From Escherichia coli (lineage in GTDB: Bacteria > Pseudomonadota > Gammaproteobacteria > Enterobacterales > Enterobacteriaceae), in NCBI RefSeq assembly GCF_044324875.1, contig NZ_CP172185.1: DNA of 64,000 nt. One strand, given 5' to 3'. Every line of letters starts with the position of its first letter. The first letter of the stretch is position 1. Positions 20,119 to 63,409 of the stretch are shown one piece after another. The position numbers and the translations under genes were made by a program. The notes under the pieces were generated by a model, which was not told the origin of the DNA, ran no database searches, and saw nothing but the letters and a program-made list of their open reading frames with translations.

Positions 20119-20124
20119 TTACCC

Positions 20125-21474
20125 TTACCAGCTCACCTTCGCCTCAAATCCACGTTGTTCCGCATTCCCAAACTCAACATTCATGCCATGCAATTTGGCG
20201 ATTCGCTGGACAATCGATAGCCCAAGTCCACTGCCGGTAGCGGTTTGTCCGGGTGGGCGATAGAAGCGTTCGCCAATTCTCGCCAGTGCCTCTGGCGTCA
20301 CACCGGGGCCGTTATCCCTCACGATGAAACTATCGGCATTCAGCGTGACGTCCACCACGCTGCCCTGTGGACTGTAGCGCACGGCGTTATCCAGAAGGTT
20401 TCGTACCAACAAACTTAGCAACAGCGGTTGTCCGGTGCGTTTGATGCCGTGGGCATTGAGTGTCAGTCGCACGTCAATTTTCGCCTGCTGCGCCGTGTGG
20501 TAAATATCCATCACCGATGATTGCAGGAGATCTTCAAGCGGGATCTCCGCGACGTCCTGAAGGTTATCCAGTGAGTCCAGCCGCGATAGCGTGAGCAGTT
20601 GATCAACCAGACGAGTAGCACGATCGATTCCGGAATGTAATTGAAGCAGCGCTTTTTTCCGCGCCTGCGGATCATCGTCAGAGAGCTGCGCAACTTCGGT
20701 TTGCACTTTCAGCGCCGTTAACGGGCTACGAAGTTCGTGAGCTGCGTCGGAGGTAAAGCGTCGTTCTCGAACCATCATCGCATGTGTGCGGGCGAACAGT
20801 TGATTCAACGACTCAACCAGTGGACGCACTTCGCTGGGTACGCCCGTCGCGTTTAGTGGTTTTTCCGAGTCAGGGTCACGCATACGTAGTGCCAGCGCCA
20901 GTTTGTTCAGCGGCGCGAGTTCACGACCCAGTAGTACCATCATGATGATTAACATAATCGGCAGTGCGACAAGCCACGGGATCAATTGCCCTGCAACAAT
21001 CGCCAGCGCCATGTCTTCGCGGTATTCCCATTCCTGACCAACAACGATGCGATATTTGCCATCAGGTGAGGTCATCCAGACAAAACGCCAGGGATCGTCT
21101 TCACCGACCAGTTGCCCGTCAGCAAAACCTTCCCGTTGATAGCTATAGGGAATATCTTCTCCGTTATCGCCATCGTTAAGGACCATTCTGCCGTCGTGGG
21201 TAAAGATGGCAAAGGTTAGCGCATCGTCATCAACATGACCGTGTTTTAATTTATTTGGCGTCTGTGCCATGCGATCTGCCGCGTTGATTTCGTTGAGATC
21301 GAGCGTACTTAACCGCTTGGCAAACAGCATCAGTTGGGTGTCGAACAACTCATCGACGTTATCCGTTGTTTGTTTCCAGGCGACAAAGCTGGAAAGCAGC
21401 CAGGTCACTGAGGCCAGAATTAAAAAGATTAGCGTCAGCCTGACTCGCAGACTAAGACGTTGGGTAAATTTCAT
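20125..21474 (-). CDS. qseC: Sensor histidine kinase QseC
   Basis: 449-aa ORF with two transmembrane segments, H-box ([12 protein letters not shown]) and ATPase motifs; overlaps the qseB stop. Confidence 0.95.
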
Positions 21475-23209: not shown

Positions 23210-23754
23210 TGAAGAATCTTTACCGGAGTGTGAGCCAAATCACTCGCGATAAGTTTGAGCGAATAATGCCACAGGCGTATTGTTGTTGGGCTTATAATTT
23301 CTCCGGTAAGGAATACCATGTATACGCGAAATTTATTATCCGGTGCGCCGTAAGCCGTCTCGAGGGTACCCATGAGCAGGCCGCACTTATGGCAGGAGGC
23401 GCGGGGCACAGGTGGAGACACTGCTAAGCTGGGCTGAACCGTATACTTACAGACGACTACTTTGATGCTTTAGGCTTCCCTGGACTCGCATAACCTCAAC
23501 TTCTCGAATCGCCCGGTGCGGACCCGCATGCCGAGTGGTGTGGCATGGGCGCAACCTTGTGTTGCCCCCTATGCCGATCAAGTCTACAGCAAAGAGTTGT
23601 ATATCAAGACACATTGATGTCTTTATCGCCGTCGGAGCACGTCCGGCGGCGCTATTCACGCTGATCTCCTGTGACTCGACGCGGCAGATAATGTAGTATC
23701 TCCGGCAATATTGCCCCTTTGAAGGCTGGCGAATAAGTTGAGGAATCAGAATTA

Positions 23755-26054: not shown

Positions 26055-26084
26055 GCCGGATGAAACGTTAAGTCGTCATCCGGC
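26055..26084 (+). terminator. REP-like stem-loop downstream of parC
   Basis: gccggatga ... tcatccggc inverted repeat about 40 nt after the parC stop. Confidence 0.35.
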
Positions 26085-28471: not shown

Positions 28472-28581
28472 TCTTCATACTCGCCCGAGGAGGGCGAGTA
28501 TGGAATACCTTTCGATTTCTCTTTCGTTCCGGCTTATAATCCCCGGCCTTTGATTATTTTTTTATCATTTCTGGAAGCAAA

Positions 28582-30809: not shown

Positions 30810-30841
30810 CCCGGTAACAGAATGCTACCGGGAATTTTTTT
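30810..30841. terminator. Bidirectional terminator between ygiQ and yqhH
   Basis: cccggta-acagaatgc-taccggg hairpin followed by aattttttta. Confidence 0.55.
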
Positions 30842-33104: not shown

Positions 33105-33208
33105 ACGTTCCTCCTTTATATGAACTCACCGGAGCAGGCTCCGGTGAGGTGTTGTGAACTTAAGTCTGGACGAAATGCCCGAAAACGAAAGTTTGAGGCG
33201 TAAAAAGC

Positions 33209-35504: not shown

Positions 35505-36164
35505 TCAGGCGTTACAGTATTTTTTTTTAATCACCACAAACAGCGTGCCTAACAAGCCAGCGGTTAACAAGGCAATTGGCAGGATCATCAGGATCGTCAT
35601 TACCTGATCTTCATGGCGTTTAACGAACGGAATCATACTTAATGCATAGCCGAAACTGGTTACCACGCTGACCCACAGCAATCCACTTAACCAGTTGAAA
35701 AACTGGAAGCGGCGGTTTGGCAGACCGGAAATTCCCGCCATGGTTGGCAGCAACGTACGGACAAATGCAAGAAAACGTCCAGCCAGCAGCGCCAGCAGAC
35801 CGTGGCGGTCAAACATGCAGGTGGCGCGCTGGTGATATTTAGCGGGAAGCTGTGCCAGCCAGCCTTTCACCGTTTTGGTATTCCCTAACCAGCGCCCCTG
35901 AATATAACTTAACCAGCAGCCCAGACTTGCTGCGGCGGTCAGAATCGCAATCGTAGGCAGAAAATCCATAACCCCCTGGGCAATCAATGCGCCAGCCAAT
36001 ATCAACAAGCTGTCGCCTGGCAAAAATGAGGCGGGCAGCAGGCCGTTTTCTAAAAACAGCGTGGCAAACATGACAAAGTAAACAACGCTAACAATATGAG
36101 GATCCGCCAGCGCGGCAAAGTCGTGTTGCCAGAGCGCAGCGATGATATCTTGAATAACAGCCAT
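35505..36164 (-). CDS. yghB: DedA-family inner membrane protein YghB
   Basis: 219-aa polytopic membrane ORF with DedA/SNARE-associated signature. Confidence 0.85.
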
Positions 36165-37742: not shown

Positions 37743-38477
37743 GTGGGTAATAATTTAATGCAGACGGACCTTTCCGTCTGGGGTATGTATCAGCACGCCG
37801 ATATTGTCGTTAAGTGCGTGATGATTGGGCTTATTTTGGCCTCCGTAGTCACCTGGGCAATCTTCTTCAGTAAGAGCGTAGAGTTCTTCACTCAGAAGCG
37901 TCGCCTTAAGCGCGAGCAGCAACTGCTGGCTGAAGCGCGTTCCTTAAACCAGGCCAACGATATCGCCGCTGATTTTGGTAGCAAAAGCTTAAGCCTGCAT
38001 TTGCTCAATGAAGCGCAGAATGAGCTGGAACTGTCAGAAGGCAGCGACGATAACGAAGGTATTAAAGAACGTACCAGCTTCCGTCTGGAGCGTCGGGTCG
38101 CCGCAGTAGGTCGTCAAATGGGCCGCGGTAACGGTTATCTGGCAACCATCGGCGCGATTTCGCCGTTCGTTGGTCTGTTTGGTACGGTCTGGGGCATCAT
38201 GAACAGCTTTATTGGTATCGCGCAAACGCAGACCACTAACCTGGCAGTCGTTGCGCCGGGTATTGCAGAAGCTCTGTTAGCAACGGCAATCGGCCTCGTG
38301 GCAGCGATTCCGGCGGTCGTTATCTATAACGTATTTGCACGTCAGATTGGCGGCTTTAAAGCGATGCTGGGTGATGTCGCAGCGCAGGTATTGTTGCTGC
38401 AAAGCCGTGACCTGGATCTGGAAGCCAGCGCCGCTGCGCATCCGGTTCGTGTCGCACAAAAATTACGCGCAGGATAA
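37743..38477 (+). CDS. exbB: TonB-system proton channel ExbB
   Basis: 244-aa ORF (GTG start) matching ExbB from recall. Confidence 0.95.
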   Translation: MGNNLMQTDLSVWGMYQHADIVVKCVMIGLILASVVTWAIFFSKSVEFFTQKRRLKREQQLLAEARSLNQANDIAADFGSKSLSLHLLNEAQNELELSEGSDDNEGIKERTSFRLERRVAAVGRQMGRGNGYLATIGAISPFVGLFGTVWGIMNSFIGIAQTQTTNLAVVAPGIAEALLATAIGLVAAIPAVVIYNVFARQIGGFKAMLGDVAAQVLLLQSRDLDLEASAAAHPVRVAQKLRAG

Positions 38478-38483
38478 TGTCCG

Positions 38484-38909
38484 ATGGCAATGCATCTTAA
38501 CGAAAACCTCGACGATAACGGCGAAATGCATGATATCAACGTGACGCCGTTTATCGACGTGATGTTGGTTTTGCTGATTATCTTTATGGTGGCGGCACCG
38601 TTAGCGACGGTAGATGTGAAGGTGAATTTGCCTGCTTCTACCAGCACGCCGCAGCCGCGCCCGGAAAAACCGGTTTATCTGTCGGTGAAAGCAGACAACT
38701 CGATGTTTATTGGTAACGATCCGGTCACCGATGAAACAATGATTACGGCGTTGAATGCGTTAACCGAAGGCAAGAAAGACACCACCATCTTCTTCCGAGC
38801 GGACAAAACCGTCGATTACGAGACGTTGATGAAGGTAATGGATACGCTGCATCAGGCGGGTTACCTGAAAATAGGTCTGGTCGGCGAAGAAACTGCGAAA
38901 GCGAAATAA
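38484..38909 (+). CDS. exbD: TonB-system protein ExbD
   Basis: 141-aa ORF with a single N-terminal transmembrane segment; follows exbB by 6 nt. Confidence 0.95.
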   Translation: MAMHLNENLDDNGEMHDINVTPFIDVMLVLLIIFMVAAPLATVDVKVNLPASTSTPQPRPEKPVYLSVKADNSMFIGNDPVTDETMITALNALTEGKKDTTIFFRADKTVDYETLMKVMDTLHQAGYLKIGLVGEETAKAK

Positions 38910-38914
38910 AAATG

Positions 38915-38949
38915 ATGCCCGGTTGCTTTTCACAACCGGGCATTTTTTT
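38915..38949. terminator. Bidirectional terminator between exbD and yghA
   Basis: atgcccggttg-cttttca-caaccgggcat hairpin followed by ttttttt. Confidence 0.6.
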
Positions 38950-39832
38950 AACCTAAATGCTCGCCGCCGCAGACACCGTGCACTTCTGCGGTGACGTAGC
39001 TCGACTCCTGACTTGCCAGGTAAACATATACAGGGGCCAGTTCCGCCGGTTGCCCCGCACGCTTCATCGGCGTTTTCTGACCAAACTGCGGGATCTTATC
39101 CTGCGTCTGTCCGCCGGAAATTTGCAGTGCTGTCCAGATCGGGCCAGGTGCAACAATATTCACACGAATACCTTTCTCCGCGACCTGTTTTGCCAGGCCT
39201 CGGCTGTAGTTCAGAATCGCCGCCTTCGTAGCCGCATAGTCCAGTAAATGCGGGCTTGGCTGGTATGCCTGGATTGACGAAGTGGTGATGATACTAGCAC
39301 CTTTCGGTAGCAGGGGGAGCGCTTCCTGGGTTAGCCAGAACAGCGCGAAAACGTTAATGGTAAAGGTCTTTTGAAACTGTTCGCTGGTGAGGTCTGCAAT
39401 ATCAGGAATGGCAACCTGTTTCCCGGCGACCAGCGCCATAATATCCAGCCCGCCTAACGCCTTGTGCGCTTCGTGAACCAGCGAACGGGCGAATTTCTCA
39501 TCGCTTAAATCGCCTGGCAGCAGGACGGCTTTGCGTCCGCATTCTTCAATGATCTTTTTCACATCCTGAGCGTCTTGTTCTTCTACGGGAAGATAACTAA
39601 TCGCCACGTCAGCCCCTTCACGCGCGTAAGCAATGGCGGCAGCGCGACCGATTCCGGAATCGCCCCCTGTCACCAGTGCTTTACGATCTTTCAGGCGACC
39701 GCTACCAACATAGGTTTTCTCGCCGCAATCCGGTACCGGTGTCATCTTCGCCTGGATGCCTGGCGTCGGTTGTTTCTGTTTGGGATATTCACCAGTGTAA
39801 TACTGCGTGGTCGGGTCTTTTAAATGAGACAT
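38948..39832 (-). CDS. yghA: NADP-dependent short-chain dehydrogenase/reductase YghA
   Basis: 294-aa ORF with Rossmann motif [10 protein letters not shown] and the SDR catalytic region. Confidence 0.85.
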
Positions 39833-39953
39833 CGTTTTTCTCCCTTCAGGTTCAACGTCCTTTAAGGGTAGACGCTCTCGATGCGTTGATAAGGGAACCA
39901 GGAAGATCCCTAAACCTCGGATTTATGCGACAAAGGTTTAACGGATATGTTGA

Positions 39954-40517
<564 letters not shown>

Positions 40518-40524
40518 TCTGATT

Positions 40525-40550
40525 CGGGCGCGGTTCTCGCGCCCGTTATT
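40525..40550. terminator. Terminator hairpin between yqhA and gpr
   Basis: cgggcgcg-gttct-cgcgcccg hairpin followed by ttatt. Confidence 0.5.
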
Positions 40551-40556
40551 AACAGG

Positions 40557-41597
40557 TCATTTATCGGAAGACGCCTGCCACAGATTCAGCTCGCCATCGG
40601 CGATATGCTGATCAATCTGCGCCAGCTCCTCGGCACTGAATGCCAGGTTGTTTAACGCCTGCACGTTCTCTTCCAGTTGTTCCGGACGGCTGGCACCAAT
40701 CAACACCGAGGTGACGCGTTCATCTTTCAGCAACCAGCTTAACGCCATTTGCGCCATTGATTGTCCACGCTGCTGTGCCATTTCATTCAATAACCGCAGG
40801 CTGTTGAGGTTGGCTTCGGTGAGCATTTTCGGCGTCAGACCACGAACTTTATTCCCTTCACGATGCATCCGTGAATCTTGCGGAATACCGTTGAGATATT
40901 TTCCGGTCAGCAATCCCTGAGCCAGAGGAGTAAAGGCAATGCAGCCCACGCCGTTATGTTGCAGGGTATCCAGCAGGCCGCTTTTATCCACCCAGCGGTT
41001 CAGTAAATTGTACGAAGGTTGATGAATTAACAGCGGAATTTTCCACTCGCGCAGCAACTCGACCATTTTTTGCGTCCGCTCTGGCGAGTAAGAGGAGATC
41101 CCGACATAAAGCGCCTTACCGCTTTGTACCGCATGAGCCAGCGCAGAGGCGGTTTCTTCCATCGGCGTATTTTCATCGACGCGATGAGAGTAAAAGATAT
41201 CGACATACTCAAGCCCCATACGCTTCAGGCTTTGGTCGAGGCTGGCGAGCAGGTATTTACGTGAACCGCCAGAGCCGTAAGGGCCGGGCCACATATCGTA
41301 GCCAGCCTTGGTAGAGATAATCAGTTCATCGCGATAAGCGGCAAAATCCTCCCGCAGCAGGCGACCAAAGTTCTCTTCTGCGCTTCCTGGAGGCGGCCCG
41401 TAATTGTTGGCTAAATCAAAGTGCGTAATGCCTAAATCAAACGCTTTACGCAGGATCGCACGCTGTGATTCCAGCGCGTTAACGTGACCGAAATTGTGCC
41501 ATAAACCGAGCGATAACGCGGGCAGGCGTAAACCGCTTTTTCCGCAATAACGGTACTGCATCTGCCCGTAACGCTCGGGATTCGCTAACCAGACCAT
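40557..41597 (-). CDS. gpr: L-glyceraldehyde 3-phosphate reductase (aldo-keto reductase YghZ)
   Basis: 346-aa ORF; aldo-keto reductase family (Kv-beta-like). Confidence 0.9.
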   Translation of the reverse strand: MVWLANPERYGQMQYRYCGKSGLRLPALSLGLWHNFGHVNALESQRAILRKAFDLGITHFDLANNYGPPPGSAEENFGRLLREDFAAYRDELIISTKAGYDMWPGPYGSGGSRKYLLASLDQSLKRMGLEYVDIFYSHRVDENTPMEETASALAHAVQSGKALYVGISSYSPERTQKMVELLREWKIPLLIHQPSYNLLNRWVDKSGLLDTLQHNGVGCIAFTPLAQGLLTGKYLNGIPQDSRMHREGNKVRGLTPKMLTEANLNSLRLLNEMAQQRGQSMAQMALSWLLKDERVTSVLIGASRPEQLEENVQALNNLAFSAEELAQIDQHIADGELNLWQASSDK

Positions 41598-41753
41598 GAC
41601 CTCTCCTTTCCACCATTCAATTTCGAAACAATGTTTCTAGTTTAGCGATTCATCAGCGCGTATCCCGTAGTCTGGCTCACAGAGTGACGAAAAACTGGGC
41701 AAAAACACGCGCTTATGCTTTGCTTAAAAAAACACCAGTTGAGGAGTGCAACG

Positions 41754-42637
41754 ATGCCGCGTTTAACCGCCAAAGATTTCCCACAAGAGTTGCTGGATTA
41801 CTACGACTATTACGCTCACGGGAAAATCTCGAAACGTGAGTTCCTCAACCTTGCGGCGAAGTATGCGGTAGGCGGGATGACGGCATTAGCGTTGTTTGAT
41901 TTGCTCAAGCCAAATTATGCGCTGGCGACTCAGGTAGAGTTTACCGACCCGGAGATTGTTGCTGAGTACATCACGTATCCTTCACCAAATGGTCACGGCG
42001 AGGTACGGGGTTATCTGGTGAAGCCCGCAAAGATGAGCGGCAAAACGCCAGCCGTGGTGGTGGTGCATGAGAATCGTGGACTGAATCCGTATATCGAAGA
42101 TGTGGCACGGCGAGTGGCGAAGGCGGGGTATATCGCCCTGGCACCTGACGGCTTAAGTTCCGTTGGAGGTTATCCGGGTAATGATGATAAAGGTCGTGAG
42201 CTGCAACAGCAGGTTGATCCAACCAAACTGATGAATGATTTCTTTGCCGCAATTGAGTTTATGCAACGCTATCCGCTAGCGACAGGCAAAGTGGGTATTA
42301 CCGGATTTTGCTATGGCGGTGGCGTATCGAACGCGGCGGCTCGTATCCGGAACTGGCCTGCGCGGTGCCGTTTTATGGTCGACAGGCACCCACCGCCGAT
42401 GTGGCGAAGATTGAAGCGCCTTTACTACTCCACTACGCGGAACTGGACACCCGAATCAACGAGGGCTGGCCTGCTTACGAGGCGGCGTTGAAAGCCAATA
42501 ATAAGGTCTATGAGGCGTATATCTATCCGGGGGTTAATCACGGATTCCATAATGATTCCACGCCCCGTTATGACAAATCTGCCGCCGATCTTGCCTGGCA
42601 AAGGACGCTGAAATGGTTCGATAAATATCTCTCCTGA
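41754..42637 (+). pseudogene. yghX: Dienelactone hydrolase family gene yghX, frameshifted
   Basis: Two overlapping ORFs in different frames (41715..42491 and 42308..42637) together cover one dienelactone-hydrolase-like protein; the frame switches near 42336-42345 (..GGGVSNAAA then continuing as [12 protein letters not shown] in the other frame). Confidence 0.7.
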
Positions 42638-42755
42638 TAGGTTTATCTCTTACGGGATTACGTCTTAAACAAGCATGAAAAAATAGCGTGCGCAAAAGTC
42701 GTTCTTTGCCTAAAATATCGCTATATATGGCAATATATAGCGAATGAGGTGAACG

Positions 42756-43043
42756 ATGAATAACCATTTTGGTAAAGGCTTAATGGCGGGATTAAAAGCA
42801 ACGCATGCCGACAGTGCGGTTAATGTGACAAAATACTGTGCCGATTATAAACGCGGTTTTGTATTAGGCTACTCACACCGGATGTACGAAAAGACCGGAG
42901 ATCGCCAGCTTAGCGCCTGGGAAGCGGGTATTCTGACGCGCCGCTATGGACTGGATAAAGAGATGGTAATGGATTTCTTTCGTGAGAATAATTCCTGTTC
43001 TACGTTGCGCTTTTTTATGGCCGGTTATCGCCTCGAAAATTGA
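42756..43043 (+). CDS. yghW: DUF2623 protein YghW
   Basis: 95-aa ORF with a good RBS context, upstream of the hyb operon. Confidence 0.7.
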
Positions 43044-43231
43044 TCAAACATACGTATTATCTTGCTTTAATTAATTACACTAATGCTTCTTCCCTTCGTT
43101 TTAGCGCCCCGCCGCAGTATCATGATATCGATAACCATAATAAATGTGTGGTAAATGGCGCATCGATCGCATTATTGATTTTGCGATTGAGGCAAAATAT
43201 ATGCCAGGTCTTCGCAACGGAATAACTATAA

Positions 43232-57031: not shown

Positions 57032-58381
57032 TTGGCGGGTTTTAACATCAAACATTGGTTTGCAGATGGCGCGTTTCGCACCATTATTCGCAATAGCGCC
57101 TGGTTAGGCTCCAGTAATGTCGTGAGCGCCTTGCTGGGTCTGTTGGCGCTCTCGTGTGCCGGTAAAGGGATGACGCCCGCCATGTTTGGCGTACTGGTGA
57201 TTGTGCAATCGTACGCCAAGTCGATCAGCGATTTTATTAAGTTTCAGACATGGCAGTTGGTGGTGCAGTACGGAACACCAGCATTAACCAACAATAATCC
57301 ACAGCAATTCCGCAATGTCGTCTCATTTTCCTTCTCGCTGGATATCGTCAGCGGCGCGGTGGCGATTGTCGGCGGCATTGCCTTACTCCCTTTTCTTTCC
57401 CATTCATTAGGTCTGGATGACCAAAGCTTTTGGCTGGCAGCGCTGTATTGCACGCTCATTCCTTCAATGGCTTCCTCCACGCCGACCGGCATTCTGCGTG
57501 CGGTAGATCGCTTCGACTTAATTGCTGTACAGCAGGCGACGAAACCTTTTCTGCGCGCAGCGGGGAGCGTCGTTGCCTGGTATTTTGACTTTGGTTTTGC
57601 GGGTTTTGTTATTGCCTGGTACGCCTCGAATCTTGTTGGCGGCACCATGTACTGGTGGTTTGCCGCACGTGAATTACGCCGCAGAAATATCCATAACGCG
57701 TTCAAATTGAATCTGTTTGAGTCTGCCCGACACATCAAAGGCGCGTGGAGTTTTGTCTGGTCAACCAACATTGCCCATTCCATCTGGTCGGCGCGTAATT
57801 CGTGCAGCACAGTGTTGGTGGGGATCGTGTTAGGACCCGCTGCCGCCGGGTTATTTAAAATCGCCATGACATTCTTCGACGCCGCCGGAACGCCAGCGGG
57901 TTTACTGGGCAAAAGTTTTTACCCAGAGGTGATGCGTTTAGATCCGCGTACCACCAGACCGTGGTTGTTAGGCGTGAAGTCAGGTTTACTGGCGGGCGGA
58001 ATCGGTATTCTGGTGGCGCTCGCGGTGTTGATCGTCGGCAAGCCGCTCATTTCGCTGGTGTTTGGCGTTAAGTATCTCGAAGCGTATGACCTGATTCAGG
58101 TGATGCTGGGCGCAATTGTGATCTCGATGCTGGGCTTCCCTCAGGAGTCATTGCTATTGATGGCGGGAAAACAGCGCGCTTTTCTCGTGGCGCAAACCAT
58201 CGCCTCAATCGGCTACATCGTATTGCTGTTCATGTTCTGTCATCTGTTTGGCGTGCTGGGGGCTGCATTTGCTTACTTCGGTGGGCAATGTCTGGATGTG
58301 GTGTTCTCGCTAATTCCGACCTTAAAGGCATTTTTTCAGCGCCATTCCTTGCTTTATAACTCAGCCGGAGAGAAATCCTGA
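57032..58381 (+). CDS. yghQ: Polytopic inner membrane protein, Wzx/MOP-flippase-like (YghQ)
   Basis: 449-aa ORF, hydrophobic throughout with many predicted transmembrane segments; the ORF-track start is a TTG, so the true start may be an internal ATG (for example about 57170). Confidence 0.7.
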   Translation: MAGFNIKHWFADGAFRTIIRNSAWLGSSNVVSALLGLLALSCAGKGMTPAMFGVLVIVQSYAKSISDFIKFQTWQLVVQYGTPALTNNNPQQFRNVVSFSFSLDIVSGAVAIVGGIALLPFLSHSLGLDDQSFWLAALYCTLIPSMASSTPTGILRAVDRFDLIAVQQATKPFLRAAGSVVAWYFDFGFAGFVIAWYASNLVGGTMYWWFAARELRRRNIHNAFKLNLFESARHIKGAWSFVWSTNIAHSIWSARNSCSTVLVGIVLGPAAAGLFKIAMTFFDAAGTPAGLLGKSFYPEVMRLDPRTTRPWLLGVKSGLLAGGIGILVALAVLIVGKPLISLVFGVKYLEAYDLIQVMLGAIVISMLGFPQESLLLMAGKQRAFLVAQTIASIGYIVLLFMFCHLFGVLGAAFAYFGGQCLDVVFSLIPTLKAFFQRHSLLYNSAGEKS

Positions 58382-59217
58382 TGATGAGAAAATATTTCCC
58401 GCTTGAGGCGAGCGAGCGTCTATTTGTTGCGATTGAAGAAGATGATGTTGTTGATGCACAGGTCAGTTTGCCGCCGACTATCGCACTAAGTTGTACCACC
58501 GAAATCATCCATGATAATTACGCGTTATGCCTGCAATTCTGGCTCAATGGCGTCAATCGCCAGGAGTTACTGCGTTTAATATGCAAACAGGCCAAAGGCG
58601 ATGAGCTGACTGCTGATGAGCGCAAACAATTTAAATACATGCGAGCGCGCTACAAGCACCTGCGTTTTGCGCAACGGCTGTATTTAAAAAAGCATCAGGC
58701 CGGATTTTTATTCGGCAAAACGACCGTTTTTTTGGGGCGTTTTCAGGACGGCTTTCGTAACGGTAAGAAAAATATTGTGTCGTATTACGGCAACCTGTTA
58801 CGGGTTTATTTAAGCTCTCCGGTCTGGTCGTTGGTGAACTATTCATTACGCCATAGCCAGTTAGAAAGCGTAAGCGGTTTTATTGCCTATCGGCAAAAGC
58901 AAATGCATACCCTGAAAGAGATAATTGCCAAACCGCGACTAACTGGCAGGGAATTTCATGATGTGCGAAAAATCATCAGCCAGCAGGTTTCTTATTACGA
59001 CACCTTAAGATCGCTTGATCCTGAAAATAAAGAGGCGTTACTGATTTCCCGTTTTCTCGCCGCCATTAATGGTCTGATGGGGGATAAGCACGACGACATG
59101 GTGGCGGATGATATGGAAAACCGCCAGTCGTATGATGCACCGGTGGCGCTGGATAGCGATATTCGCCAGCGTTTAGAACTGCTGATTTCGCGTTTCCCAC
59201 TCTATCCGGAGCAATAA
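58381..59217 (+). CDS. Hypothetical soluble protein (no recognised domain)
   Basis: 278-aa ORF whose ATG overlaps the yghQ stop (ATGA) and whose stop overlaps the next start (TAATG); no transmembrane segment or signal peptide seen. Confidence 0.6.
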   Translation: MMRKYFPLEASERLFVAIEEDDVVDAQVSLPPTIALSCTTEIIHDNYALCLQFWLNGVNRQELLRLICKQAKGDELTADERKQFKYMRARYKHLRFAQRLYLKKHQAGFLFGKTTVFLGRFQDGFRNGKKNIVSYYGNLLRVYLSSPVWSLVNYSLRHSQLESVSGFIAYRQKQMHTLKEIIAKPRLTGREFHDVRKIISQQVSYYDTLRSLDPENKEALLISRFLAAINGLMGDKHDDMVADDMENRQSYDAPVALDSDIRQRLELLISRFPLYPEQ

Positions 59218-59777
59218 TGCCATCTCGTTGGATTTTCGCTCTGATCATCGCACTCTTAGCGCCAGGCGCGGTGGCACACAATTTCGTCACTGGCAAAACG
59301 GTTACCCCTGTTTATATCCAGGAAGGCGGTGAGTTGCTTCTGAAAAGCGACGACGAAATTCACTACCAAAAGTGGAACAGCACACAGCTGGCGGGAAAAG
59401 TTCGCATTATTCAGTATATCGCCGGGCGTAAGTCGGCGAAGAAAAAGAACTCACTGTTAATTAAAGCGGTTGAAGCGGCAAACTTTCCGCAGGATCGTTT
59501 TCAGCCCACCACCATTGTGAACACCGATGATGCCATTTTTGGTACTGGCTATTTTGTCGTTGGCAAAATCGAAAAAAATAAACGCCGCTATCCGTGGGCG
59601 CAATTCGTTATTGACGGCAATGGACAGGGACGCGTTGCCTGGCGGTTGCCGGAGCAGAGTTCAACCATTCTGGTGCTGAATAAAGACGGGCAAATTCAGT
59701 GGGCAAAGGACGGCAGCCTGACGCCGGAAGAGGTAGATCATGTCATTGCGCTGGCGCAGAAACTGATCAATGAATAA
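59217..59777 (+). CDS. Secreted/periplasmic protein with signal peptide (possibly YtfJ-like)
   Basis: 186-aa ORF with N-terminal signal peptide (MPSRWIFALIIALLAPGAVA); family assignment tentative. Confidence 0.55.
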   Translation: MPSRWIFALIIALLAPGAVAHNFVTGKTVTPVYIQEGGELLLKSDDEIHYQKWNSTQLAGKVRIIQYIAGRKSAKKKNSLLIKAVEAANFPQDRFQPTTIVNTDDAIFGTGYFVVGKIEKNKRRYPWAQFVIDGNGQGRVAWRLPEQSSTILVLNKDGQIQWAKDGSLTPEEVDHVIALAQKLINE

Positions 59778-59807
59778 AAAATTCAAAGGATTGAGGGCGT
59801 TAGCGAG

Positions 59808-60878
59808 ATGAAGCTGGTTGAACACTACATCATGCGTGGTACGCGCCGTCTGGTGTTGATTATCGTCGGTTTTCTGATCTTTATTTTCGCCAGCTACTCC
59901 GCACAGCGTTATCTGACCGAAGCGGCAAATGGGACATTAGCTCTTGATGTTGTGCTGGATATCGTTTTCTACAAAGTGCTGATTGCACTGGAGATGTTGT
60001 TACCTGTTGGACTGTATGTGTCAGTTGGCGTGACGCTAGGGCAGATGTATACCGATTCGGAAATTACCGCTATCTCTGCGGCGGGGGGCAGTCCGGGACG
60101 CTTGTACAAAGCCGTTCTTTATCTGGCGATACCGCTAAGTATTTTTGTCACCCTTCTGTCGATGTATGGTCGTCCGTGGGCTTATGCGCAGATTTATCAA
60201 CTGGAGCAACAGTCACAGTCGGAGCTGGATGTTCGCCAGTTGCGGGCAAAGAAATTTAACACTAACGATAACGGACGAATGATCCTTTCCCAGACGGTTG
60301 ATCAGGATAATAATCGCCTGACTGACGCGCTGATTTATACTTCTACTGCCAATCGAACCCGCATTTTCCGCGCCCGTTCGGTTGATGTGGTTGACCCATC
60401 TCCCGAGAAACCGACCGTTATGTTGCACAACGGGACAGCCTATCTTCTCGATCATCAGGGGCGTGACGACAACGAACAGATCTACCGTCATCTGCAATTA
60501 CATCTGAATCCGCTGGATCAAAGCCCTAACGTCAAACGCAAAGCGAAATCGGTCACGGAGCTGGCGCGCTCCGTCTTTCCAGCCGATCATGCCGAACTGC
60601 AATGGCGACAAAGCCGTGGCCTGACAGCATTGTTGATGGCGCTGCTGGCCATTTCATTAAGTCGGGTAAAACCGCGGCAAGGGCGATTTTCAACATTATT
60701 GCCACTGACGTTGCTGTTTATTGCCATTTTTTATGGCGGCGACGTCTGCCGTACGCTGGTGGCTAACGGCGCGATTCCCCTCATTCCTGGTTTGTGGTTA
60801 GTACCCGGACTCATGCTAATGGGCCTGCTGATGCTGGTCGCACGCGACTTCTCTTTGCTGCAGAAATTTTCCCGATGA
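59808..60878 (+). CDS. YjgP/YjgQ-family permease, LptF paralog
   Basis: 356-aa ORF with the N-terminal helix pair, LG..Y.DSEITA motif, a large periplasmic insert and the RQGRF motif typical of LptF/LptG; location shows it is not the canonical lptF. Confidence 0.8.
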   Translation: MKLVEHYIMRGTRRLVLIIVGFLIFIFASYSAQRYLTEAANGTLALDVVLDIVFYKVLIALEMLLPVGLYVSVGVTLGQMYTDSEITAISAAGGSPGRLYKAVLYLAIPLSIFVTLLSMYGRPWAYAQIYQLEQQSQSELDVRQLRAKKFNTNDNGRMILSQTVDQDNNRLTDALIYTSTANRTRIFRARSVDVVDPSPEKPTVMLHNGTAYLLDHQGRDDNEQIYRHLQLHLNPLDQSPNVKRKAKSVTELARSVFPADHAELQWRQSRGLTALLMALLAISLSRVKPRQGRFSTLLPLTLLFIAIFYGGDVCRTLVANGAIPLIPGLWLVPGLMLMGLLMLVARDFSLLQKFSR

Positions 60879-61954
60879 ATGTTTTCAGTCGCTATTTAAT
60901 CCGTCATCTCTTTCTCGGTTTTGCCGCCGCCGCAGGGCTATTGCTGCCGCTTTTTACCACCTTCAACCTGATTAACGAACTGGATGATGTCAGCCCGGGT
61001 GGTTATCGCTGGACTCAGGCGGTGCTGGTGGTGCTGATGACCTTACCGCGCACACTGGTCGAACTTTCGCCGTTTATCGCATTATTGGGAGGGATTGTTG
61101 GCCTGGGGCAGTTATCGAAAAACAGTGAGCTTACCGCCATTCGCAGCACGGGGTTTTCTATCTTCCGTATTGCACTAGTGGCGCTGGTTGCCGGGATATT
61201 TTGGACTGTTTCGTTAGGCGCGATAGATGAGTGGGTGGCGTCGCCATTGCAGCAACAGGCGCTGCAAATCAAATCGACTGCCACCGCGTTGGGGGAGGAC
61301 GATGACATTACCGGCAATATGCTTTGGGCCAGGCGCGGTAATGAATTTGTGACGGTGAAATCGCTGAACGAGCAGGGCCAGCCTGTGGGCGTGGAGATAT
61401 TTCATTATCGCGACGATCTCTCGCTCGAATCCTACATTTTTGCACGCAGTGCCTCCATTGAAGACGACAAAACGTGGATCCTGCATGGTGTGAATCATAA
61501 AAAATGGTTGAATGGCAAAGAAACGCTGGAAACATCAGATAATCTTGCCTGGCAATCGGCCTTCACCAGTATGAATCTTGAAGAGTTATCGATGCCGGGA
61601 AATACTTTTTCTGTCCGTCAACTTAATCATTACATCCATTATTTGCAGGAAACTGGGCAACCCAGCAGCGAATACCGCCTTGCACTGTGGGAAAAACTGG
61701 GACAACCCATCCTGACCCTGGCGATGATTTTGCTGGCTGTGCCGTTTACCTTTAGTGCCCCGCGTTCGCCTGGGATGGGTAGCCGTCTCGCTGTAGGCGT
61801 CATCGTGGGCTTACTTACCTGGATCAGCTATCAAATCATGGTCAATCTGGGATTGCTATTTGCGTTGAACGCACCTGTTACCGCGCTCGGTTTACCGGTA
61901 GCGTTTGTGCTGGTGGCGTTGAGCCTGGTGTATTGGTATGACAGACAACATTAA
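60875..61954 (+). CDS. YjgP/YjgQ-family permease, LptG paralog
   Basis: ORF 60794..61954 trimmed to MNVFSRYLIRHLFLGF (359 aa), whose ATG overlaps the upstream stop (ATGA); LptG-like motifs (SEL.A..S.G, PRSPGMGSR). Confidence 0.8.
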   Translation: MNVFSRYLIRHLFLGFAAAAGLLLPLFTTFNLINELDDVSPGGYRWTQAVLVVLMTLPRTLVELSPFIALLGGIVGLGQLSKNSELTAIRSTGFSIFRIALVALVAGIFWTVSLGAIDEWVASPLQQQALQIKSTATALGEDDDITGNMLWARRGNEFVTVKSLNEQGQPVGVEIFHYRDDLSLESYIFARSASIEDDKTWILHGVNHKKWLNGKETLETSDNLAWQSAFTSMNLEELSMPGNTFSVRQLNHYIHYLQETGQPSSEYRLALWEKLGQPILTLAMILLAVPFTFSAPRSPGMGSRLAVGVIVGLLTWISYQIMVNLGLLFALNAPVTALGLPVAFVLVALSLVYWYDRQH

Positions 61955-61988
61955 ACCCGCCGTGGCGCAACACCACAGCGGGCTCACA

Positions 61989-63161
61989 TTACTGCTTCAG
62001 AGTAGCGAACGCTTGAATGATGGCATCAATTTGCTCACGACTGTGGGCAGCGTTTACGCTACAGCGCAGCAGCGTGATGCCTGCAGGCGCGGCAGGTGGC
62101 AGGATAAGATTCACATAAACGCCCAGCGAAATAAGCTCGCGCCAGATGCGTAAACCTTCCTCTTTCGAACCGATTATTACTGGCACTACCGGGCTAATAT
62201 GTGAACTTAACTCATAACCCAGTTTTTGCAGACCGTCATACAGATGGTTGGCATTATCCATCAGCTTTTGCCGCAACTCTGGTTGTGTAGCAATGGTTCT
62301 TAACGACGAGCGCACGGTCGCAATGCAGGACGGAGAAGGAGAGGCGGTAAAAATATACGGGCGGCTGCCGTAGCGCAGCACTTCCATCGCTTCCGAACCG
62401 ACAGCAAAACCGCCAATCGAGGCCAGACTTTTACTGAAAGTACCAACGATAATATCCACATCATCTTCAACGCCAACGGCTTCAGCCAGTCCGCGCCCCG
62501 TTGCGCCTAACACGCCAAACGAATGCGCTTCATCGACAATCAAATAACCACCGAGACGACGTTTGATATCAACAATTTCCGCCAGCGGCGCAACGTCACC
62601 GAGCATACTGTAGATGCCTTCAACGATGATAATCGCCTCTTTTGCCCGTTCACCGAGGCGAACCATGCGCCGTTCCAGATCTTTAGCATCGTTATGGCGG
62701 AAACGAATAATTTCCGCGCCACCGAGAGAACAGGCGTCATAAATACTGGCGTGGCTGTCGGCATCCAGTAACACCACGGCGTTATGGTCGGCAAGTGCGC
62801 TGATGACGCCTAAATTAGCGGTATAACCGGTTGAAAAAACGATAGCGGTAGGGCGATTAAAAAACTCGGCGATCTCTTTCTCTAACGCCAGATGCGGCGC
62901 ATAACTGCCGTTTGCCATACGAGAACCGGTGGTGCCGGTGCCTTGGGCCGCTAACGCTGCCTGACCTTCGGCGATGGCATCATGATTGAAGGTTAATCCG
63001 AGATAATTATTGGTCCCGGCCAGAATCACTTTTTTATTGCCGATCCGGCCTTCGGTGGCGGAATACACTTCATCAATACAGGTACCAAACGGCGTTAACC
63101 CGTTGTCACTAAATTGCAGTCGCTCGCCAGCAAGACGCGCATATTTATCGTATAGCCCCAT
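61989..63161 (-). CDS. Serine palmitoyltransferase-like PLP-dependent alpha-oxoamine synthase
   Basis: 390-aa ORF with the PLP-lysine motif GTFSKS (Spt-type; BioF has TFGKG, KBL has GTLGKA) and further blocks recalled from Sphingomonas Spt (AIVFSTGY.ANLG, LDADSHASIYD, VDEAHS, RPYIFTAS, PPA.PAG, LLRCS). Confidence 0.8.
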   Translation of the reverse strand: MGLYDKYARLAGERLQFSDNGLTPFGTCIDEVYSATEGRIGNKKVILAGTNNYLGLTFNHDAIAEGQAALAAQGTGTTGSRMANGSYAPHLALEKEIAEFFNRPTAIVFSTGYTANLGVISALADHNAVVLLDADSHASIYDACSLGGAEIIRFRHNDAKDLERRMVRLGERAKEAIIIVEGIYSMLGDVAPLAEIVDIKRRLGGYLIVDEAHSFGVLGATGRGLAEAVGVEDDVDIIVGTFSKSLASIGGFAVGSEAMEVLRYGSRPYIFTASPSPSCIATVRSSLRTIATQPELRQKLMDNANHLYDGLQKLGYELSSHISPVVPVIIGSKEEGLRIWRELISLGVYVNLILPPAAPAGITLLRCSVNAAHSREQIDAIIQAFATLKQ

Positions 63162-63409
63162 TATTTATTCTCCAGCCATGGAAGTAGTGTTTCCATTAAT
63201 TGCGCAGGGGTTTTGACATCCAGCAGAATATTAATAGGAATGGAAATATCGAATCTGTCTTCCAGCATCATTAAGAGATCCATCACTTTGATCGACTCCA
63301 GGCCAAGATCGTTGACGAGATCGCTGTCGGGCTTAATTTCCACACCGTTTTCGACCAAATCCTGTAAACAGGAAAGGATGTAATCCATTACTATTTCACG
63401 ATTTACCAT
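63161..63409 (-). CDS. Acyl carrier protein (dedicated ACP)
   Basis: 82-aa acidic ORF with the phosphopantetheine-attachment context DLGLESIKVMDL; stop overlaps the Spt-like start (TAATG). True start may be the internal Met at about 63388. Confidence 0.7.
   Translation of the reverse strand: MVNREIVMDYILSCLQDLVENGVEIKPDSDLVNDLGLESIKVMDLLMMLEDRFDISIPINILLDVKTPAQLMETLLPWLENK

Follow-up and report, generated by a model that had tools for sequence, protein, structure and literature searches.

Organization of the yghX locus

We analyzed a 64,000-nucleotide stretch of Escherichia coli DNA (hereafter, the window), in which the yghX gene occupies positions 41754-42637; all coordinates refer to this stretch, and all yghX features described below lie on its plus strand. 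The list of open reading frames of the window contains two overlapping frames at this locus, ORF1 (41754-42491) and ORF2 (42308-42637), the latter being in the -1 frame with respect to the former and overlapping it by 184 nt. The ATG at 41754 coincides with the start annotated in intact yghX alleles and lies 7 nt downstream of a Shine-Dalgarno-like GAGGAG at 41741-41746, as read from the sequence, with an upstream ATG at 41715 as the alternative start of ORF1. Scans against Rfam and for promoters and terminators revealed nothing relevant at the yghX locus. Further downstream, a perfect 11-bp inverted repeat, TCGCTATATAT-TGCC-ATATATAGCGA, is found at 42718-42743, just upstream of the yghW start (42756), and might act as an operator or form a terminator-like hairpin.

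The two ORFs match consecutive parts of the same protein family profiles. Positions 1-115 of the Pfam dienelactone hydrolase profile PF01738 align with ORF1 (75.9 bits) and positions 119-217 with ORF2 (75.5 bits), both scores being above the gathering score of 21 bits, although each ORF contains a partial domain only. The NCBIfam profile NF041440 ("YghX family hydrolase") is divided in the same way, with positions 1-194 on ORF1 (383.6 bits, E = 5e-115) and positions 196-292 on ORF2 (183.6 bits, E = 4e-54), and such a placement of consecutive profile halves is far beyond chance. The curated NF041440 cut-off of 460 bits, which applies to the whole protein, is exceeded by the restored or intact YghX (586.7 bits) and reached by neither ORF; thus, the locus is yghX by descent, and no product of it is a full member of the family. 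The gene order yqhA, gpr (yghZ), yghX, yghW, hybO is the same as in the annotated genomes of NY1601, K-12 and 1919D62, so that the split gene, flanked by gpr (yghZ) and yghW and lying upstream of hybO, is in its orthologous position. Based on the abutting profile halves and the conserved neighbours, we concluded that ORF1 and ORF2 are one yghX gene in two frames. The preliminary description of this DNA, made from its letters alone, had likewise proposed that a single hydrolase-like protein of the dienelactone hydrolase type, YghX, is split into two overlapping ORFs, and NF041440, PF01738 and the gene order agree with it on each of these points.

A 4-bp deletion separates the two frames

Alignment with intact orthologues, by which the preliminary description had expected the exact indel to be found, located the lesion to the base. 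In comparison with NY1601, K-12 and 1919D62, the tetranucleotide GTCG (codons Val197-Ala198) is missing between 42341 and 42342 (GCGGCT^CGTATCC), after codon Ala196, which falls within the span of 42336-42345 originally estimated for the frame switch. As a result, yghX measures 884 bp in the window versus 888 bp in intact alleles (e.g. NY1601, encoding WP_001305985.1), and re-insertion of GTCG yields a translation identical to the intact 295-aa WP_001305985.1. The 5' part of the gene (41754-42341) comprises native codons 1-196, with 100% identity in tblastn to residues 1-196 of WP_001305985.1, and encodes the N-terminal YqhI-like and signal-like region together with the initial two thirds of the hydrolase fold. 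It is followed in ORF1 by an out-of-frame tail of 49 missense codons (42342-42491, TGA stop at 42489-42491), which has no similarity to YghX in that frame. The 3' part (42344-42637, matching residues 198-295 in tblastn) comprises native codons Tyr199-Ser295 in the -1 frame and ends with the native stop codon at 42635-42637. Over 1201 bp, the window and NY1601 are 99.7% identical, the four gap columns being their sole difference. Only two indels were found in 35.5 kb of window sequence compared with NY1601; besides the GTCG deletion, there is a difference of 1 bp in an intergenic region at 30822.

The deletion can be placed in only one way, and no microhomology, direct repeat or homopolymer was found at its junction. 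Simple replication slippage was considered as the mechanism of the deletion and is unsupported, given the lack of any repeat, microhomology or homopolymer at the junction. Recoding was considered separately: a site of programmed -1 frameshifting by the ribosome, or of slippage during transcription, could still give full-length YghX from a two-frame gene. In favour of such a site, the downstream frame is in the -1 register, towards which most programmed frameshifts are directed, and the two ORFs share 184 nt. However, no slippery heptamer of the X XXY YYZ type occurs in any frame between 42300 and 42491, there is no homopolymer run at the junction, and a shift made elsewhere than at the junction would leave missense residues within the fold. 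Moreover, every orthologue examined, in E. coli, E. fergusonii and Citrobacter, is a single-frame gene of 295 aa (888 bp), and the two-frame layout is therefore not conserved. Recoding, including the slippage site that the preliminary description had offered as an alternative, is accordingly very improbable.

The deletion is present in independent assemblies

One window taken alone cannot rule out a sequencing or assembly error behind which the real gene is intact, an alternative that had also been raised in the preliminary description, and the source genome lies outside the RefSeq set of complete E. coli genomes. The distribution of the truncated product argues strongly against an error of this kind. 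The exact 245-aa product of ORF1 was found on 123 contigs (126 index blocks) from independent projects, deposited as NCBI assemblies or assembled from single SRA runs; its carriers include GCA_958308375.1, GCA_900482385.1, SRR31141048 and SRR31121854, and in GCA_900482385.1 the fragment is recorded as "hydrolase [Escherichia coli]" (SRA98949.1). Over 4.5-20.7 kb, the carrier loci that we retrieved match the window at 99.97-100% identity, and they contain the same deletion. The metC allele of this clone led to two further genomes, GCA_049006665.1, which stands for 17 similar places, and GCA_044691445.1, and both are 99.99% identical to the window and have the deletion. The deletion site is neither a homopolymer nor a repeat, and no other coding indel was detected across the window, in which all of the approximately 55 other genes shared with NY1601 are full length and free of stops. 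An artefact thus has hardly any chance of being the correct explanation, and we consider the deletion a genuine mutation.

The clone carrying the deletion and its genomic background

Between the window and other members of the clone there are 1-2 SNPs per 11-20 kb. Among complete RefSeq genomes, the best match to the window reaches only 99.1% identity over 24 kb. Within an approximately 5-kb block at 38000-43000, spanning yghA-yqhA-gpr-yghX-yghW, the window has zero SNPs relative to NY1601, whereas the flanks differ by 1-4%, a pattern that suggests a recombination mosaic. The zero substitutions relative to NY1601 indicate that the intact parental allele still exists unchanged elsewhere, and the window copy of yghX shows no secondary decay, which points to a young lesion. 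Judged from these sequence comparisons, the deletion is evolutionarily young, with an age that is only loosely bounded. We also searched for a sister genome with intact yghX through the metC allele, but the contigs with a 295-aa yghX are only 98.1-98.8% identical and represent other lineages, and therefore they cannot date the deletion.

In several clone members the sequence breaks at 43221-43222, 10 nt before the hybO start, and several have an IS1 inserted there. The NCTC genome GCA_900482385.1 has IS1 at this position joined to abgA-abgB-abgT-ogt-fnr-uspE, a large IS1-mediated rearrangement by which yghW has been parted from the hyb operon. The insertion is absent from the window. In addition, most draft assemblies of the clone are fragmented into contigs of 20-50 kb, and together with the IS1 insertions this makes the genome of the clone appear rich in insertion sequences, IS1 in particular. 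The IS1 rearrangement and the fragmented drafts prompted us to consider a Shigella origin, which was rejected because the named clone-specific protein records are all assigned to Escherichia coli and one of the carrier contigs is 5.75 Mb long. In the same NCTC genome, a 1-bp indel at window position 35520 extends the called product of yghB from 219 aa to 233 aa; it may reflect an error of assembly or be a second small lesion of that isolate.

Outside yghX, several differences in gene content were noted. The 1.5-kb ygiS gene of NY1601 is absent from the window, where ygiV and parC are separated by 237 bp of unannotated sequence (23339-23576); the ygiS-less arrangement was observed in 1353 of the 5426 complete E. 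coli genomes and is thus a common presence/absence polymorphism. Relative to NY1601, the window also lacks a 1.7-kb segment with hcp, a hypothetical gene and ygiZ, a copy of IS1397, and a 7.7-kb TRAP-transporter/dehydrogenase island located in NY1601 between ftsP and ygiQ, the positions of the absent segments being 20119-20125, 26069-26073 and 28472-28532. The only Rfam match of the window at the gathering threshold is the ES173 small RNA (33143-33206, minus strand, 99 bits), between dkgA and yqhD. The gene cluster at 57032-63409 falls outside the classical K-12 picture and is common to NY1601; it contains polysaccharide-biosynthesis/flippase-like, hypothetical and YtfJ-family genes, LptF/LptG paralogues, a serine palmitoyltransferase and an acyl carrier protein.

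The deletion is distinct from the K-12 lesions

The yghX gene of K-12 is annotated as a frameshifted pseudogene, and its pseudogene status was correctly stated in the preliminary description, which suggested that the lesion in the window may be old and shared with K-12. This annotation is what speaks for a common lesion inherited from an ancestor, and the nucleotide alignment contradicts such an origin. Two lesions were identified in K-12: 2 bp are deleted at codon 37 (GAAG[TA]TGCGG, corresponding to approximately 41862 in the window) and 1 bp close to codon 157 (CCAA[C]CAAA, approximately 42223), the sites being located at 1762/1763 and 2121/2122 of the retrieved K-12 locus, respectively. The window is wild type at both of these sites and has neither component of a K-12-type allele, and K-12 is wild type at the site of the GTCG deletion. 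The two K-12 deletions sum to -3, and the frame is restored after approximately 120 out-of-frame codons.

The distribution of the three lesions was compared among 5426 complete E. coli genomes using 40-nt junction queries that seed only if the junction is present. The junction of the K-12 2-bp deletion was found in 1251 of these genomes and that of the 1-bp deletion in 1198, whereas the junction of the 4-bp deletion was found in none (0/5426); an intact 44-mer spanning the site, used as a positive control, was present in at least 3986. A 24-mer across the junction of the window also gave no exact match in a set with one genome per species, a result that is uninformative, since the E. coli representative in that set is outside the clone. 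The absence of the 4-bp junction, compared with the 1251 and 1198 occurrences of the K-12 junctions, indicates that the lesion of the window is independent and clone-specific rather than old and shared, and the probability that it is the ancestral K-12 lesion is practically negligible. Regarding the order of events in K-12, the 2-bp deletion is probably older than the 1-bp deletion, because it is present in slightly more genomes and occurs alone in strain 1919D62.

Predicted consequences for the YghX protein

The parent gene encodes a 295-aa enzyme of the dienelactone-hydrolase (alpha/beta-hydrolase) fold with a signal-peptide-like N-terminus. Residues ~59-294 of YghX are near-identical to PDB entry 4ZV9, deposited as an "uncharacterized protein" (E = 6.5e-160), and the mature domain therefore has a solved structure. 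The catalytic triad of the Pseudomonas dienelactone hydrolase consists of Cys123, Asp171 and His202. By alignment to 4U2C, which is the C123S variant of that enzyme, and to 1DIN, the corresponding residues of YghX are Cys186, Asp233 and His264. The nucleophile Cys186 (codon TGC, 42309-42311), aligned with residue 123 of 4u2c, lies in the motif G-F-C-Y-G-G upstream of the deletion, and the codons for Asp233 (GAC, 42446-42448) and His264 (CAC, 42539-42541), aligned with Asp171 and His202 of the dienelactone hydrolase, lie downstream of it. The deletion thus falls within the triad, and no single polypeptide contains all three residues, Cys186 being encoded in ORF1 and Asp233 and His264 only in the downstream frame.

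Translation from the native start would give a 245-aa product in which 196 native residues, including the nucleophilic cysteine, are followed by 49 missense residues. Such a product would be missing two of the three triad residues, Asp233 and His264, together with the final third of the alpha/beta-hydrolase fold, and for this reason it is expected to have no catalytic activity and probably to be unstable. ORF2 retains the aspartate and the histidine and has lost the nucleophile together with the N-terminal region. Its translation contains no internal methionine, and the first possible start is a TTG that is not preceded by an obvious Shine-Dalgarno sequence; given the lack of both an ATG and a visible ribosome-binding site, ORF2 is probably not translated. 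To our knowledge, no substrate of YghX has been established experimentally, and hence the loss of function is defined in structural terms only.

The N-terminal region of the protein has features of its own. Residues 1-58 (41754-41927) form a long signal-peptide-like N-terminus, in which a twin-arginine motif in its Lys-Arg variant (S-K-R-E-F-L-N) precedes a hydrophobic segment with A-L-A at its end; the 4ZV9 construct starts just after this region. Judged from the sequence, YghX may be a periplasmic enzyme. The Pfam family YqhI (PF23678) matches residues 1-36. In K-12, the 47-aa small protein YqhI, which was detected by epitope tagging, consists of YghX residues 1-36 and 11 out-of-frame residues (PMC6001520). 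The production of YqhI in K-12 supports the functionality of the native yghX start.

Evolutionary interpretation

Taken together, these results lead us to assign a probability of about 0.93 to the interpretation of 41754-42637 as a yghX pseudogene that arose by a genuine, clone-specific and young 4-bp deletion, independently of the K-12 lesions. In this interpretation, a gene for a 295-aa enzyme with the Cys186-Asp233-His264 triad lost GTCG after codon 196, which shifted the rest of the gene into the -1 frame, and the resulting allele is fixed in one tight, IS1-rich E. coli clone.

The gene has been damaged elsewhere as well. K-12-type lesions are present in ~23% of the complete genomes, and other independent truncations belong to the same 90% cluster, with products of 283 aa in S. 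flexneri and 282 aa in E. coli. At least three independent sets of lesions are therefore on record, namely the 2-bp and 1-bp deletions of the K-12 clade, the 4-bp deletion of the present clone, and the C-terminal truncations of S. flexneri and other strains. Because of the K-12-type lesions and the other truncations, yghX looks like a dispensable gene that has been repeatedly lost in E. coli, and its loss would represent ordinary gene decay, either neutral or under relaxed selection. The papers found on yghX mostly use the pseudogene of K-12 as a place for integration into the chromosome; none of them addresses function.

The several independent inactivations could also mean that loss of yghX was adaptive and selected in some lineages, or that the truncated N-terminal product is itself functional, as might be suggested by the detection of the N-terminal fragment as YqhI in K-12. 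However, a dispensable gene would be lost recurrently just as well, the lesions differ in position and leave no common retained product, and the gene is intact in most genomes (intact junction in at least 3986 of 5426), and we therefore regard this explanation as unlikely. Somewhat more doubtful still is its far-reaching form, in which yghX inactivation would be recurrently selected across E. coli and Shigella, the N-terminal piece would have acquired a role of its own, and the present allele would be adaptive.

Under the favoured interpretation as a decayed gene, the allele is one more independent yghX pseudogene, of little wider import given that yghX was already recognized as a pseudogene in K-12. 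The 4-bp deletion provides a clean clone-specific marker, found on 123 contigs of one clone and in none of the 5426 complete genomes. With respect to annotation, the locus should be recorded as one pseudogene rather than as two "hydrolase" ORFs, and the result corrects the assumption that every yghX frameshift is the K-12 lesion.

Comparison with known systems

The closest reference is the intact YghX (WP_001305985.1; NF041440; PDB 4ZV9), to whose gene the DNA of the window is identical over 1.2 kb save for the four missing bases. In contrast to that gene, the window allele cannot encode the full protein, and its fragments score 383.6 and 183.6 bits against the family profile. The Pseudomonas dienelactone hydrolase ClcD (1DIN, 4U2C; PF01738) has the same fold family and the same positions of the Cys-Asp-His triad; however, it is a distant relative of YghX (E ~1e-15), which has an additional N-terminal region of ~58 residues and no known substrate, and in the window yghX the triad is split across two frames. 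The K-12 yghX pseudogene, with its small ORF yqhI, shares with the window allele both the gene and its locus, which is bordered by gpr (yghZ) and yghW and lies upstream of the hyb operon; it is also frameshifted, and in both cases a truncated N-terminal product can come from the native start. The two alleles differ in their lesions, the K-12 allele having the -2 deletion at codon 37 and the -1 deletion near codon 157 for a net change of -3, whereas the window has a single -4 deletion after codon 196. They also differ in their spread, since the K-12 lesions are widespread (1198-1251 of 5426 genomes), whereas the deletion in the window is absent from that set and limited to one clone.
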